Assembly (NCBI GenBank): GCA_037305845.1
Contig: CP147778.1
Location: 1,984,001-2,048,000, forward strand
From: Candidatus Freyarchaeum deiterrae
GTDB lineage: Archaea; Asgardarchaeota; Jordiarchaeia; Jordiarchaeales; Jordiarchaeaceae
DNA: 64,000 nucleotides
Direction of reading: 5' to 3'
In this document: positions 1,076-9,538 of the stretch, one piece after another
Layout of the letters: every line of letters begins with the position of its first letter
Position numbering within the stretch: the first letter of the stretch is position 1
Program-made: the position numbers and the translations under genes
Notes under the pieces: model-generated
Seen by the model: only the letters and a program-made list of their open reading frames with translations
Told to the model about the DNA's origin: nothing
Databases searched by the model: none

Positions 1076-2080
1076 TTAAGACATTTTAGTTCTTAGTTTA
1101 AGTGGTTTTCCAAGGGATTTGTCGTATACGAAGAGCACTTCCTCGGAATCGAGTCCTATCTCTCCAATTATCGTGTTGTCCTCAATGAACTTGCTTTTGT
1201 AAATCACCCTTATGGGTTCACTTAACCCCAAAGTTACTATAAGGCGGTCTTTGAGTTCCCGTATGGTTTCTTGTTTATCGATCGCGTATTCGATACCTTC
1301 TAGTTTGTATTTGTCGCTACAGATTATGCATTTAGGATTTCTTTCTAGTTTAATTGTTGTAAAGCTTTGGCTCATTCCATCATAAAACAAGTAATTATCA
1401 ATGAGCGGAGATAAGCCAAGTAGTATTTTGATAGTATCTTGTGCTTGGATGCCGCTAAGAACTGCTGTAATAGTTGAGACCGAGGGAAACTTAGACTGTT
1501 CAACTTCAACTTCTAACTTTTCTCTCTTCTTACCTGGTGGTGTGCATGATTTTTGGAATCTCTCACGAGGGAGAAGTGGCTGGCACTCCAGACATGGTGT
1601 TAAATAAGGTATTATGACCTGAATATTACCATACCATCCATACATCCCGCCGTGGACTAAGGGTTTGTTAAGGCTAACACATAAAGAGTTCAGCCAACGT
1701 CTTGCCTCAAAGGTATCAAGTCCGTCAACAATCACATCGCTTTCCTCGTAGTATTTGCGAGGCACGTTAATAATACTCTCATTTCGGTCTATAACTTCAA
1801 CGTTTGGATTAATTTCTTTAAGTTTTTCCGCTGCTACCTTCGCTTTAAATTTGTCAATATCGCTTTCAGTAAATAAAAGCTGACGATTAAGATTAGATAA
1901 TTCAATAGTATCCATGTCTACAAGTATTAGCTTTCCTACTCCAGCTAAAGCCAATAAAGCCGCAACCATTGACCCCAATGCACCGACGCCAGATATGAGG
2001 ACAGTTGATTTCTTAAGTTTGTCCTGATTCCACCCCTCAAGCAGTTCCTGTCGATGATATCTACTGTCAACTTTTTTCAA
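1076..2080 (-). CDS. Ubiquitin-activating enzyme E1 (ThiF/MoeB adenylation fold plus C-terminal ubiquitin-fold-like domain)
   Basis: RYHRQ, GVGALG, DMDTIELSNLNRQLLF, Zn pairs CLEC and CIIC, candidate catalytic SCT, ~70-aa C-terminal extension; downstream of the E2 and ubiquitin genes. Confidence 0.9.
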   Translation of the reverse strand: MKKVDSRYHRQELLEGWNQDKLKKSTVLISGVGALGSMVAALLALAGVGKLILVDMDTIELSNLNRQLLFTESDIDKFKAKVAAEKLKEINPNVEVIDRNESIINVPRKYYEESDVIVDGLDTFEARRWLNSLCVSLNKPLVHGGMYGWYGNIQVIIPYLTPCLECQPLLPRERFQKSCTPPGKKREKLEVEVEQSKFPSVSTITAVLSGIQAQDTIKILLGLSPLIDNYLFYDGMSQSFTTIKLERNPKCIICSDKYKLEGIEYAIDKQETIRELKDRLIVTLGLSEPIRVIYKSKFIEDNTIIGEIGLDSEEVLFVYDKSLGKPLKLRTKMS

Positions 2081-2126
2081 GGCTAAACCCTCTTAAAAGG
2101 TATATAGTATGTAGTGGTTAAAAAAA

Positions 2127-2585
2127 TTACTTTCCAAGATTGTTCCAGGTAGCATATTTTTTGACGTGCTCCTTTGCAGTTTTAGAGAAATCATCCAAAT
2201 TTTTGGTCATTTCTTTAGCTGCTAGTGTGTTTAAGGGGGAATGAGGATTTGGATAATTAAGGAGATTTCTTAGGGTTTCTATTACACCCGTTATGCTCAT
2301 GCTAGGTAGCCAATCCTTGCCCAAAATATTTACACACACGTTTTTTTGAAATATGTTGGGATGCCAGATATCAGTATTCCAAACCACTTTTGGGGGCTCA
2401 TAAGGAAATTTTCTTGGGAGGATTATCTCTATTTCAAATACGCCTGACTCGTATATTCCCGTCCCTATAATAAACCCCGTCCACCTTCTCAAGTCTCCAT
2501 CAACTGGGTGAAAAGACGGTTCTTCTTCTTCCATTTGTTTAGCTTCGTATACAAGTCTTGCTTCGTATTCTTCGTCTGATAGAAT
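2127..2585 (-). CDS. Ubiquitin-conjugating enzyme E2 (start uncertain: first ATG at 2534, but the conserved helix 1 extends to about 2585)
   Basis: FPYEPPKV, WHPNI, catalytic CVNIL, DWLP, PNPHSPLN..AA are all UBC-family motifs. Confidence 0.95.
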   Translation of the reverse strand: MLSDEEYEARLVYEAKQMEEEEPSFHPVDGDLRRWTGFIIGTGIYESGVFEIEIILPRKFPYEPPKVVWNTDIWHPNIFQKNVCVNILGKDWLPSMSITGVIETLRNLLNYPNPHSPLNTLAAKEMTKNLDDFSKTAKEHVKKYATWNNLGK

Positions 2586-3063
2586 CTTGATCCCACCGGG
2601 TGCGCATTATTTAATAACTTCCTGAAAGTGGATACTGTCTCGTATCTATAAATTTTTAATGATTCTTAATTAAGAGAGGGAAGAAAGACTTTATAAACTC
2701 GTAGCCAAAAGGCGGAGTATTTTCTCCTTTTTAAATTGAATAATTTCATATAGCCTTTACTAGTACAGAGAGATTTTGGTTGTTTGAACTACGCGTTTTA
2801 GGAGGCGTCTTTCAGACCCCGGGTTAGTTCTTTCTTCGCTTTTCTCAGCGTAGCCAAAGGCTTATTAAAATATTTTAAGCGCCATGCTTTCAATCTTTTT
2901 TAATTTCTATGCCTTTAGGCAACTTTCTCTCTTATCTTTGAGAGTATCTTACCTGATATTTATATTAATTAGAAATTTAAAAACATATTCGGGAGTCGCA
3001 AACTATAAATAGTTTAAAAAAATGATGGTTTTCTTTGCGTTTCAATGAAAAAAGGTAGCGTTT

Positions 3064-3315
3064 TTAGTAGGGTCCTCCCTCAGTTCGGGTAACAAGGTAT
3101 AATTTGTCGTAGGGCTGAACGCCAGCTTTTTCTAGTGTTGTATCGTTTTCGAGTTGCTGGCCTCTGTACACCAGAATTAGAGTTGAGGCAGGTACTCTTT
3201 TTTTCTTAGCTACCTGAGATTTTATGTTCTCTATTCCCGACTCAGGATCAACATCGAACTCCAAAACCTCTCCGCCAATTGCTGAAACTATTTTTACTAT
3301 CATTTTACTCACCAT
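3064..3315 (-). CDS. Ubiquitin-like modifier, precursor ending GG-PY
   Basis: Beta-grasp pattern IENIKSQV..VP....ILVYRGQQLEND.TL...GV....LYLV.R.EGG, like eukaryotic ubiquitin/NEDD8 rather than SAMP/MoaD. Confidence 0.92.
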   Translation of the reverse strand: MVSKMIVKIVSAIGGEVLEFDVDPESGIENIKSQVAKKKRVPASTLILVYRGQQLENDTTLEKAGVQPYDKLYLVTRTEGGPY

Positions 3316-3569
3316 TTCCTAACTTCTTTAATATCAAGTGGTTTTGAGCAGTTAGGGCAGAAGCCCTTAATCTTTAACCACTCCAATAGATGGTCGCGAT
3401 GTGCCGGGAGTCCACAGAATGGGCAGTAAACTCGTTTCTCATCTTCCCTGATTTTTAGATTACATACTATGCACCTTGCAGGCTTTGAAAAGTCCCATGT
3501 GCCTATAACTTTGACATCGGATACTGTGAATCTTTCAGAGTGGGCTTCCTGCACCTGCATAACCTCCAA
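3309..3569 (-). CDS. Small RING-finger E3 ligase
   Basis: CIVC...CPFC.x4.H.x2.H.LLEW......CPNC; overlaps the ubiquitin start by 7 nt, suggesting translational coupling. Confidence 0.88.
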   Translation of the reverse strand: MEVMQVQEAHSERFTVSDVKVIGTWDFSKPARCIVCNLKIREDEKRVYCPFCGLPAHRDHLLEWLKIKGFCPNCSKPLDIKEVRKW

Positions 3570-4434: not shown

Positions 4435-6231
4435 TTAACCTATTACTAGTTGGGGTTCCTTTCTAACATATTTTCCTTCGCCTTCAATAGTGTAGGACAA
4501 CGAAATTTCCTGTCCCGGCTCTATTCTCTGGAAGTTCCATGTGAGTATCAACTCGTTAATGTTCTCTGTTACCTTGGGTTGTACTTCTTCTGGTTTCCAC
4601 TCAACCAAATTAAAACCTTGTGGGATAAAGTCTTTTACGGTAACGTTTGTCATGCTTACTTCTCCGGTGTTCACAATAACTAGTGGGACTACGTGTTGCC
4701 CTGCTTTCGCTCCTGGAGATACAGCTTCTTTGTATATCTTAACTGCACGACGAGTGTACTTAATTCCAATTTTTGGAGGTTTGCTTTCCAGCTCCGAGTA
4801 CTCCACGTCAGGACCAGGTTGTGTTGTGTTGCCAGTTGCTCTCAATGGAGTTGGATAACTCTTTTCAGGTTTTGGCTCCCAAGCCATCATTGGGTAAACG
4901 CATTTAACGGTTTGCCCCGGGTTTATCCCTCTCACGAGGCTTTTCATATTCTTGACGAAAACTGTTAATCCATGTCTTACTGTGGAGTTGTCGTCGTTAG
5001 GATTTGTTATAATCTCTATACCTTGAGATAATTCTTTTTCATTCACATAAATTTTTACACGTTCGTGTGCGGGGGGTTTAAAGTCCTCTGGGATAGTATC
5101 GTATATTGTCACCTGATCTAGTGCGGCGCTTCCTATATTTGATATTAAAACCGTTACAGTCATCGGTGTTTTATCATAGGCGTCTACTTGGGCTGGTGTG
5201 AAAGTTTTTTCCGCTAGAATTCTCTCCACTGGAAGCATAGTATCCTCCTTGGTAATCTTAGAATACACGTGGCGGGTTACCTCTTTAACTGCTTTGTAAT
5301 CGATGTTTGTTTCGAAGACGGGCATTGTGGGGCTTTTGACGTTAAACTTGTACTCCCACGATTGTTTTGGAGGAACATCCTTGTTAGGTTCCAAAGAAAG
5401 AAGCTGTTCTTTCTTCTCTCCCTTGATTTGGAAGATTTCCACCTTTAGGAGTCTTTGTAGAAATTCACTCGTGTTCAAAAACTCGATTGTACAATCCCAT
5501 GTTGATGGGTGTGAAGGCGACTCTGATGGTTCTATTGCAAATCTACTATCTGAAATTGCTGTGATGTCCGGGTTTAGCAGTGACCTAGTTCTATCTTTAA
5601 TGTGGTATTCTGCTATAACTTTGCCTGCACCAATTGGTTCTATGGATTCGGCAGTGATTCTTAATTTAACAACCAGAGTGGCGTCGCTTCCTGCTGACAG
5701 TTCAAAATTCTTCCATACGACCTCTCTTGATTCCGATTCAAACTCAGCGGCTCCTGTATTCGGCGGCTCTATTTCTGGATCTCCAAAACCCTTTGGTATA
5801 ACTTTTCGTATTTTTATACTGTCAATATATGTATCAGTTGGGTTGCTGACTGTGATAGTGCAACTTACAGGCATCGGTCTCTTGTACACTAAGGCCCAGT
5901 TAATTTGCTCATCTTCATCACAAGTGTCCACTGTTTCCTTCAATTTGAGAACTGTTTCCTCAACAGGCACATTATACTCTTTCGCCCAATTGTTACCTGC
6001 TAAGACTGCACCAACTGGTATAACGCTCTCTTTCAATGATGTGGTTTCTATGCCTCCGACTCGAATTTCACCGTTCCATATCCTGTTTTTTGAACTCTGG
6101 TTATTAACGGAGATAACTCCTCTTACTTTTAGGCTTTTAATCTCATGTTTCTCGGTTAAAACGCAGTCTTCGTTCTCAGTCACATCCAAGTTTAATTTTA
6201 AACCTTCTGAGCTCACAATTGTTTCCCTCAC
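4435..6231 (-). CDS. All-beta protein: mu-adaptin homology (MHD)-like N-terminal region plus DUF11/Ig-like repeats
   Basis: LNLDVTE..DCVL......LKVRGVI and IPKGFGDPEI....GAAEF..ESREVVWK.FEL resemble MHD strands. C-terminal V.N.G......V.I.D.IP.GF repeats. No signal peptide. Confidence 0.6.
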   Translation of the reverse strand: MRETIVSSEGLKLNLDVTENEDCVLTEKHEIKSLKVRGVISVNNQSSKNRIWNGEIRVGGIETTSLKESVIPVGAVLAGNNWAKEYNVPVEETVLKLKETVDTCDEDEQINWALVYKRPMPVSCTITVSNPTDTYIDSIKIRKVIPKGFGDPEIEPPNTGAAEFESESREVVWKNFELSAGSDATLVVKLRITAESIEPIGAGKVIAEYHIKDRTRSLLNPDITAISDSRFAIEPSESPSHPSTWDCTIEFLNTSEFLQRLLKVEIFQIKGEKKEQLLSLEPNKDVPPKQSWEYKFNVKSPTMPVFETNIDYKAVKEVTRHVYSKITKEDTMLPVERILAEKTFTPAQVDAYDKTPMTVTVLISNIGSAALDQVTIYDTIPEDFKPPAHERVKIYVNEKELSQGIEIITNPNDDNSTVRHGLTVFVKNMKSLVRGINPGQTVKCVYPMMAWEPKPEKSYPTPLRATGNTTQPGPDVEYSELESKPPKIGIKYTRRAVKIYKEAVSPGAKAGQHVVPLVIVNTGEVSMTNVTVKDFIPQGFNLVEWKPEEVQPKVTENINELILTWNFQRIEPGQEISLSYTIEGEGKYVRKEPQLVIG

Positions 6232-7067: not shown

Positions 7068-7388
7068 GTCTAATCCACCATTTCATTATTAGTCATAATA
7101 CAGAATTAGATTACTCATGAAAATCGGTCAAGTAGTGTTTAGTATCTAAGACAATGATTGAGAGTCTCAATAGTTAAAATAGAAGTTTGGTTGTATTTTT
7201 AGTTTTTGGTACTTTATAACAGGATTGTTTAGAAATTTTCTTTTTTTGGAGGAAATAACCCGATTCGCTGTTAACAAATACGAATTAATATGTTTCTTGT
7301 TTCTAGTTTTCTGAGAAAAGATAAATAGCTTTAGGATAACTAATATCACATAGACGAATTATTGAATTACTTTTTGTGGTGAACTGAC

Positions 7389-7964
7389 TTGGAAGAAAAA
7401 TCAAATAAAGACAGCTCCTCGCATCGAGAGCCTGTTGATGACGCGTCTCTGGATAAGCAGTTTGACAAAGTTGAAGAAATAACTGTGATTGAACTAGAAG
7501 AACTAGCCGACGCACTAGAGTTCATTTTGGATTTGCAGCCACATGTTTGTGTAATCCGTGGTATCGACTATCCCTGTATACTATGCGAATTAAAATGTGA
7601 CGTCGGGAAATGTCAAGAGATAAAAATAATGCGGGGAAAAGGATTAAAAACGATTAACAGTTCCACACTCTCCCTAAATTTCGAAAAGAGGGACTCGTTT
7701 GAAGAATACTTGATCAGTAAATTAGTTCGAGAGCTAACTCGGGAGAAGCTTAACATTATTGACCCAGAAGAGGGTTACGATATAACATTCTTTTTCAAGC
7801 ATGAAGACCGATGGAGAAAAAATGAAATTATAGTTTTCATACTCGGGCTATTTGACAGAGTAAAAATACTTATGCCTGAAGCTAAGGCGTTAGTAAATAC
7901 CTGGATAAGAAATAAAGTGAAGGGTTTTGAGAGAGAAGAGACTCTTAAAAAAATGAAAGAGTAA
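7389..7964 (+). CDS. Arp2/3 complex subunit 4 (ARPC4/p20)-like protein
   Basis: INSSTLSL.FEKRDSFEEYL..KL and PEEGYDITFFF match ARPC4 INSVRVSI.VKQADEIEKIL..KF and PVEGYDISFLI; EAKALVNTWIR...GF matches EMKLSVNARAR...EF. Confidence 0.75.
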   Translation: MEEKSNKDSSSHREPVDDASLDKQFDKVEEITVIELEELADALEFILDLQPHVCVIRGIDYPCILCELKCDVGKCQEIKIMRGKGLKTINSSTLSLNFEKRDSFEEYLISKLVRELTREKLNIIDPEEGYDITFFFKHEDRWRKNEIIVFILGLFDRVKILMPEAKALVNTWIRNKVKGFEREETLKKMKE

Positions 7965-8075: not shown

Positions 8076-9344
8076 TTACTCTTCGGGTAGTTTATTCTCA
8101 GAAGCCGAGGCTCCCTCTGTTGCTTTCCCAGTTAGTGCGTTTATTTGCTGCTGTATGGTTCTCATTTCTCCACGAATTCTTGCTCTCTGCGCAGCATACT
8201 CAGCTTTCTGTAAAGCTCCAGCCTGGTACCTTTTAGTAATATAGTCTAACTGGCTCCCAAGAGAGCGCGACCTCGACTCTAAGCTCTCTAACTCTTCGCG
8301 TTTGGCTGCATCAGTCAGTAGAGGTGAGGTTGCTGGTATCGAACGTGTGCTCGTACGAATTGTTTCAGAAATCTTTCCTTGAGAAAGCACCCTCGCTGCA
8401 AAGTCTCTAAATTCATCGAGAAACACATCAAATCTCTTTCTCAGAGTAACAACTTCACTCATTAACTTGTCAATTTCAGGCGTGTAGGCAGCAGCTATTG
8501 ATTGCGTTGTTTTTGCCCTGCCTTGCAAAGGTCTTGTAGCCAGAACTGGTTTAACTCTTTCCTCAACCAACTCCTCCTCTTCCTCCTCCTGTGGAGCACT
8601 TGATTCTGTTACCTCTTCTTCCACTACTTTTTTAGAGGCTGGTTTGGTGGGGGCGACTTTGGGTTTCGAAGGTATAACCACCCATTTAAATATATTTTTT
8701 AACAGAACCATATTTTGTGAAGTATTAAGTCCACCCATTATTCGATCCCTGAACATTTCATACGATCCTAGGGCAACAACTTTTCCGTTCCCATAATTAG
8801 AAACAGCCAAAACAGGGGCATCGGGCGGCTGTGCAGTTCTGCTTGTGATAGCTAATGCTTCTGCTTCTCCCACGAGTTTTATGCTGCAGCCCGCGGAATA
8901 AGCTAATTCTGATAGTCCTTCGGTTACAGGGTGATCCTTAAATTTCGTAATTTTGGGAAGGTTTTCCATACCTAGATTTTGTCTCTCATCAAATAACTGA
9001 TTATTCTGAAATGATACTCCAAAATTCTCGGCTAACTCGTTAAGATTGGTTCTCAGTCCGGGATCACCGCCCGCATGGCTTAATAAAACAACTCCACCAC
9101 CTCTGGAAACAAAATCTAAAACAGTTCTGATTTCTGCGGGTTGTATCTTAGACTGATCTGGACAAGGAAAAACTAACGCATTGAAATCCTTCAATTTATC
9201 CAGGGTGATTGGAAAATCAACAAATCTTATGCTCTGAATACCCTCAGTTTCCAATACTCCTTTGACAGCTGAATAACTAGTAGTGATACGTCCGCGTTCC
9301 TTTTGCGTTTCATCAAAAAGGACACGCCACTTAATTTCAGCCAA
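8076..9344 (-). CDS. GIFT (GldG/IFT52 N-terminal, GATase-like) domain protein with acidic linker, coiled coil and C-terminal helical hairpin
   Basis: VLFDE, ITLDKL, GGGVVLL..AGG....TNLNEL.E.FGV, GKVVALGS.EMF.D, N..LL.NIF.W. GGAGG precedes TTG at 9344/9347. Confidence 0.75.
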   Translation of the reverse strand: MAEIKWRVLFDETQKERGRITTSYSAVKGVLETEGIQSIRFVDFPITLDKLKDFNALVFPCPDQSKIQPAEIRTVLDFVSRGGGVVLLSHAGGDPGLRTNLNELAENFGVSFQNNQLFDERQNLGMENLPKITKFKDHPVTEGLSELAYSAGCSIKLVGEAEALAITSRTAQPPDAPVLAVSNYGNGKVVALGSYEMFRDRIMGGLNTSQNMVLLKNIFKWVVIPSKPKVAPTKPASKKVVEEEVTESSAPQEEEEEELVEERVKPVLATRPLQGRAKTTQSIAAAYTPEIDKLMSEVVTLRKRFDVFLDEFRDFAARVLSQGKISETIRTSTRSIPATSPLLTDAAKREELESLESRSRSLGSQLDYITKRYQAGALQKAEYAAQRARIRGEMRTIQQQINALTGKATEGASASENKLPEE

Positions 9345-9538
9345 CAATAAACCTCCTATCATCGGATGAGTAAACACTTTCAACCTATTTTTCAAAAGGC
9401 TCTAAAAAAATATTTTAGAACTAACCTTTTAACCTTTTTTTCTATTCAGGTATTTAAGAACCTCAAATAATATTTTGTCGCTCATAATTAATAAAATTTT
9501 ACTATTTTTACGCAATATATTTCCATGGTGAATCCCAA

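Follow-up and report, generated by a model that had tools for sequence, protein, structure and literature searches.

The gene at positions 7389-7964 (+) of the window, the 64,000-nucleotide stretch of the Candidatus Freyarchaeum deiterrae genome analyzed here, encodes a protein of 191 residues that is almost certainly a homologue of ARPC4. It is tentatively interpreted as a metal-stabilized homodimeric clamp that would bind the sides of actin filaments as an anchor or cross-linker. Crawling and phagocytosis are powered by branched actin, and the protein bears on the question of how the eukaryotic branching machinery, the seven-subunit Arp2/3 complex of which ARPC4 is one piece, arose. The Asgard actin regulators named in recent work are mainly profilins and gelsolins (PMC13716822). 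The existence of the gene is already on record: one ARPC4 (asCOG cog.002971) is counted for Ca. Freyarchaeum deiterrae in Supplementary Data 5 of PMC11291895, and an Asgard homologue of ARPC4 is mentioned in PMC7444086 and in bioRxiv 10.64898/2026.10.28.762692. Four tRNA coordinates listed in the supplement of PMC11291895 fall on tRNA genes of the contig analyzed here, which identifies it as the genome of that table, and the one ARPC4 match in it should thus be the cog.002971 member counted there. The identification is therefore already known and the family already catalogued, and the first-pass annotation, made from the sequence alone, was right in stating that ARPC4 homologues had been reported in some Asgard genomes. 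The finding itself will accordingly not surprise a specialist. Within the literature searched, whose coverage was incomplete, no cysteine motif, oligomeric state, or functional or structural study of Asgard ARPC4 was found; nor were the four-cysteine motif, the predicted homodimer, the residue mapping (R174 = human R158), the acidic N-terminal motif and the distribution by family that are described below.

The open reading frame lies at exactly the positions given above, with a TTG start and a TAA stop. A GGTGA sequence at 7378-7382 (+), 6 nt 5' of the TTG, is similar to a Shine-Dalgarno sequence and may act as one, and the in-frame TGA that it contains (7380-7382) sets the earliest possible start. 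Close homologues of 188-194 residues begin at the same position. As both flanking genes are located on the other strand, one coding for a metallo-beta-lactamase fold (divergent) and one for a GIFT domain (convergent), the ARPC4-like gene is probably a transcription unit of its own. An operon link to the nearby ubiquitin cluster or to the GIFT-domain gene was considered and rejected, since the flanking genes are encoded on the opposite strand and the neighborhood is conserved only within the order Jordiarchaeales.

A number of other genes were noted in the window. The convergent neighbor (8076-9395, -) codes for a 439-residue protein in which an IFT52-type GIFT domain (51.3 bits against a cut-off of 27.2) is accompanied by an acidic linker and a terminal coiled coil; its convergence with the ARPC4 gene, with PolB beyond, is seen in both families of the order Jordiarchaeales. 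The ubiquitin-system cluster (1076-3569, -) contains genes for a RING-like protein (3309-3569), ubiquitin (3064-3315), an E2 (2127-2534) and a ThiF/E1 protein (1076-2080) with a C-terminal ubiquitin-like fold. The ubiquitin reading frame terminates in GGPY, so that its product would need C-terminal trimming. An RNA-library contig of 159 nt matches positions 3172-3330 exactly; four sequencing runs checked for expression gave no coverage of the ARPC4-like gene, which speaks neither for nor against its transcription. The gene at 4435-6231 (-), whose 598-residue product is Ig-like (DUF11) and gives a weak adaptin mu-homology match under the cut-off (23.6 bits), is placed just upstream of a 153-residue coiled-coil gene of the opposite strand and of the ubiquitin cluster.

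The assignment to ARPC4 was obtained from both profile and structure comparisons. The Pfam ARPC4 profile (PF05856), whose use had been suggested in the first-pass annotation, matches above its gathering cut-off (30.5 versus 22.2 bits, E 3.4e-7), and a profile constructed from 35 relatives retrieves the ARPC4 chains of solved structures with E values of 3e-14 to 6e-13. The AlphaFold2 model of the protein (pLDDT 83.6) displays the full ARPC4 fold including the long C-terminal helix. Upon structural alignment, residues 29-183 (7473-7937, +) correspond to residues 2-167 of bovine ARPC4, with 154 residues aligned at Z 17.5 and an rmsd of 2.0 Å, the second-best fold reaching Z 5.1. The collinear match of about 150 residues initially claimed is thus valid in structural terms, whereas the sequence profile covers residues 88-177 only. 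Profile and structure both bear out the original description of a stand-alone ARPC4-like protein, and a spurious match is already excluded. In Foldseek, the model matched ARPC4 at E 4.6e-9 with ARPC2 chains ranking next, the TM scores by query being 0.62-0.69 for ARPC4 versus 0.27-0.43 for ARPC2. The Asgard profile is likewise closer to ARPC4 (49-53 bits) than to ARPC2 (12-19 bits). Weak matches of this profile extend to each of the two repeats of S. pombe ARPC2 (whole-chain E 0.006), which would be expected if the two subunits of the clamp descend from a single domain of this kind. Feature searches of the ESM Atlas produced top scores of 0.85 and 0.78, which are to be taken as leads only.

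The most conserved columns of the ARPC4-like family are four cysteines arranged as C54-x7-P-C63-x2-C66-x3-C70 (7548-7598, +), a motif missing from the first-pass annotation. Among 36 Asgard relatives of less than 70% identity, C54 and C70 are present in all, C63 in 35 and C66 in 34. Such a pattern of conservation makes a metal site very likely; zinc is the simplest reading and a probable one, Fe, Fe-S or disulfides being also possible. Sequence alignments to eukaryotic ARPC4 start just after this region, and the fold runs on through it in the model. The equivalent stretch of the human and other eukaryotic ARPC4 proteins is not known to contain these four cysteines. A variant of the motif, C...EPIC, is found in the ARPC4-like members of one family (loci L051, L053, L054, L066 and L069).

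The acidic N-terminal extension mentioned in the first-pass annotation is real. Residues 1-30 (7389-7478, +) include 10 D/E versus 5 K/R, and residues 14-45 include 12 versus 2; the pLDDT is below 50 for residues 1-17 and 19-27. Within this tail, D17-x3-L21-x3-F25-D26-x2-E29-E30 is nearly invariant across two families whose members are 39-50% identical, and was seen only in these two families of the order Jordiarchaeales. Its conservation suggests a probable linear motif and, more speculatively, the tail could act for example as an autoinhibitory polyanion. Other relatives are fused to additional domains. Odinarchaeal-type members (L016-L020, L056) are composed of an ATC-hydrolase/V4R-like domain, the ARPC4-like domain and a C-terminal CPxC...HxDH (CxxC) module. 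The Atabeyarchaeial fusions (L060:2941-4074 and L055:2480-3619) consist of the ARPC4-like domain, a linker and a helical module of about 90 residues that bears no Pfam name and is generic among Asgard proteins. The same module caps at least three unrelated Freyarchaeum proteins (G000 1118975, 1493017 and 566409) as well as proteins of about 470 residues from another family. Its interpretation as a gelsolin X domain, and hence as a link to actin, was rejected, as unrelated Asgard proteins carry it and no gelsolin reading frame of five genomes or of Freyarchaeum does. Single-sequence folding of an Atabeyarchaeial fusion resulted in a pLDDT of 43.5, too low to be used.

The homodimer modeling proposed in the first-pass annotation was performed with two copies of residues 28-191 and two Zn, the latter being carried along and not scored. 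A prediction score of 0.55 was obtained versus 0.00 for the best control; among structures already solved, 20 of 30 homodimers attain the mark set for such scores, compared with 1 of 23 single chains. The contacts agree to at least 94% between runs, the pLDDT is at least 84, and the predicted self-interface is symmetric and reproducible. In full-length numbering, it involves helix 102-119 (7692-7745, +), where D102 is conserved and E105 covaries with K166, and helix 150-184, with a crossing at L168/V169 and the inclusion of W172. The latter segment belongs to the long C-terminal helix (7809-7958, +), equivalent to the ARPC4 alphaD or hinge helix, which contains the predicted dyad (L168/V169) and carries K166, N170 and R174. 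Conservation is not significantly higher for the interface columns than for the rest (p = 0.14). In the eukaryotic clamp, the two long helices of ARPC2 and ARPC4 intertwine (PMC9295785); since the predicted dimer resembles this clamp, its score may originate from a memory of the solved ARPC2/ARPC4 structures. The protein is considered rather likely to form a homodimer.

Three residues of the long helix, K166, N170 and R174, align to ARPC4 K150, N154 and R158. In eukaryotes, the alphaD helix of ARPC4 touches the mother filament (PMC9295785), R158 is described as engaged in a salt bridge with F-actin and as causing disease when substituted (PMC8756495), and the alphaD face carrying K150/N154/R158 is bound by Dip1 (PMC9168731). 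Among the 36 relatives, the equivalent of R174 is an arginine in 26, with no constant acidic partner at position 115; position 166 is K or R in 35, and position 170 is N in 21 and K or R in 11. K166 and E105 covary (D-R 13, E-K 13, D-K 6 and E-R 2; p = 0.002 with a statistic that ignores kinship) and probably form an internal salt bridge. R174 and N170 are also situated within the predicted dimer interface, R174 touching the other chain in the model. Given these two observations, the conservation of N170, R174 and K166 may be structural. The mapping of R174 to human R158 lends modest support to actin binding, which is a genuine possibility for this protein without being the expected outcome.

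The genome of Ca. Freyarchaeum deiterrae, a soil archaeon, is complete and consists of one contig of 3,576,204 bases (3.58 Mb). Profile searches returned a single ARPC4 match, and no second ARPC4-fold gene was found in the complete genome by an unfiltered profile search, the next match having an E value of 0.07. Searches conducted without a positive control gave no match to ARPC2 (PF04045), ARPC3 or ARPC5 in this genome, and no ARPC2 in 301 Asgard genomes. Profilin and a two-domain gelsolin are encoded. The genome contains one actin-family gene, located about 208 kb from the ARPC4-like gene, and no Arp2 or Arp3 paralogue. With Arp2 and Arp3 absent, the Freyarchaeum protein does not belong to a canonical seven-subunit Arp2/3 complex. 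The statement that no actin or other Arp2/3 subunit is adjacent was confirmed over the 20 kb scanned around the gene. In none of the neighborhoods seen is actin encoded within a few kb of the ARPC4-like gene; these neighborhoods differ between families, and their comparison revealed no neighbor conserved across families. In a single case, a 2.1-Mb genome of the same order (L070, G006:C1), actin and the ARPC4-like gene are separated by only about 20 kb, versus 208 kb in Freyarchaeum. In the family with the C...EPIC variant, the ARPC4-like gene is directly downstream of a roadblock-like gene and near a CDC48-like gene at all loci seen, as annotated by eye.

The ARPC4-like family was detected in 93 of 301 Asgard genomes, nearly always in single copy, versus 286 of 301 for actin, which is present in every Asgard family searched. 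When the count is restricted to the 189 genomes that are at least 90% complete, presence is almost all-or-none by family: 39/39 genomes in ten families and 0/150 in thirteen, although a genome of lower completeness does encode a member in one of these thirteen. In the two families of greatest size, both of which possess actin, the gene was found in 0/89 and 0/40 near-complete genomes. We infer that the families without it are mainly Lokiarchaeia and Thorarchaeia. According to source names, the members belong to Freyarchaeia, Wukongarchaeia, Heimdallarchaeia, Njordarchaeales, Hermodarchaeia and Atabeyarchaeia. When 1.84 billion representatives were searched, 19 matches were obtained, all from the ARPC4-like family with the exception of one repeat protein of 4044 residues; those labeled Korarchaeota or Thermoproteota match a genome placed by GTDB in Asgardarchaeota. 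In a tree of 26 Asgard members, the families group together. As its deep branches are weak and no eukaryotic rows are included, no claim is made on the order of events.

The mechanism tentatively preferred would operate as follows. The Asgard counterpart of ARPC4 would probably reflect a single-domain precursor of both ARPC4 and the two-repeat ARPC2. Two copies are predicted to pair via crossed long helices, as ARPC2 does with ARPC4, the four cysteines of each would coordinate a single Zn and so stabilize the loop at the N-terminus, and the dimer would offer the helix face with N170/R174 (N154/R158 in the human protein) to an actin filament's side. The protein would then function as a side-binding anchor or cross-linker and not as a regulated branching nucleator. 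The fold match to ARPC4, the homodimer prediction in a genome where no second ARPC4-fold gene was found, the retention of the R158 equivalent in most relatives and the joint presence of actin, profilin and gelsolin all argue for such a clamp. The possible memory effect in the dimer score, the unexceptional conservation of the interface, the structural explanation available for the three helix residues and the lack of actin linkage in the neighborhoods seen argue against it, as does a distribution far narrower than that of actin, with two large families devoid of the gene. Furthermore, the eukaryotic filament interface is formed largely by ARPC2 and Arp3 (PMC9295785), neither of which was found in Freyarchaeum. 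Many of the same observations would fit an adaptor or chaperone that is homodimeric, sensitive to metal or redox state and without a role in actin, the eukaryotic stem having acquired actin binding afterwards. No feature of the family is under stronger constraint than the cysteines, Odinarchaeal-type members contain an ATC-hydrolase/V4R-like domain and a CxxC module as fusion partners, Atabeyarchaeial members end in a generic module, and neither gene linkage nor distribution follows actin. Type III secretion chaperones, which are homodimers, are the next folds at Z about 5, a value that may reflect only a common arrangement. Such an adaptor is nevertheless somewhat doubtful, considering that the R158 equivalent is kept in 26/36 relatives and that an actin partner is always at hand, actin being found in every Asgard family searched.

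A more ambitious alternative to the side-binding clamp is a surviving minimal proto-Arp2/3, in which a zinc-braced two-fold clamp would bind the mother filament, hold two copies of the only actin at the Arp2 and Arp3 places and seed filaments. The presence of one actin and no Arp paralogue is consistent with it, as are the clamp-like dimer predicted, the two-fold arrangement, which we infer to be near the short-pitch rotation of actin, and the twisting of the eukaryotic clamp that shifts the Arps to a filament-like geometry (PMC9295785, PMC9168731). It is unlikely, however, as ARPC3 and ARPC5 were not found (in searches without a positive control) and as the family presumed to hold the cultured Lokiarchaeia has the gene in 0/5 genomes, although branched protrusions driven by actin are formed by Lokiarchaeia in culture (PMC13716822). 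If true, branching or side-anchored nucleation would be accomplished by two gene products, and the ARPC2/ARPC4 and Arp2/Arp3 duplications as well as the loss of the zinc site would have come later. The protein could also pair with some other subunit, ARPC2-like but diverged or of a different kind, that is invisible to sequence searches, the homodimer being then a modeling echo. A diverged ARPC2 could indeed be missed, since ARPC2 scores no more than 12-19 bits with the Asgard profile and was searched for without a positive control; the unfiltered search of a complete genome revealed no paralogue, however, no neighbor is conserved across families and the self-interface is symmetric and reproducible, which makes a hidden partner distinctly improbable. 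Finally, whole Asgard families repeatedly lack the gene, as would be the case for a monomeric relic of minor role or a spurious match. The former is very unlikely and the latter excluded in view of an intact, nearly always single-copy gene whose conservation extends over at least ten families and includes near-invariant residues, and of the clear structural match to ARPC4.

The value of the analysis lies in making a catalogued annotation, and with it the origin of Arp2/3, testable at low cost, as the protein is small and soluble, is predicted to homodimerize, carries a candidate metal site and a named filament-contact residue, and comes from a complete genome with one actin. Should actin binding be true, the symmetric ancestor of the clamp would be seen at work; should it be false, ARPC4 would have been recruited to actin from another job.

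In comparison with known systems, the published sources on asCOG cog.002971 (PMC11291895, PMC7444086 and bioRxiv 10.64898/2026.10.28.762692) list presence only, and the table of PMC11291895 scores Atabeyarchaeia as 0 whereas a fused member (P0106) is encoded nonetheless. The type III secretion chaperones (CesT/SycE type) present a loose fold likeness (Z 4-5, TM 0.39) far below the ARPC4 match, at less than 12% identity. Eukaryotic ARPC2 (p34-Arc, PF04045) has the fold family in common with the Asgard protein, with a Foldseek probability of up to 0.99 and weak profile matches in both of its repeats, but is far more distant than ARPC4 by profile score. Eukaryotic ARPC4 (p20-Arc, PF05856; chain F of 1K8K, 6DEC and 3DWL) is alike over the whole fold at about 20% identity, and shares the motifs NS, D-x2-E and P-x-EGYD as well as the long helix with the K150/N154/R158 equivalents. 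The Asgard protein differs from it by the four-cysteine motif, located where the sequence alignments break off, by the acidic N-terminal extension, and by a genome in which no ARPC2, ARPC3, ARPC5 or Arp partner was found. In its predicted dimeric form, it recalls the pair of long helices that intertwine in the ARPC2/ARPC4 clamp.
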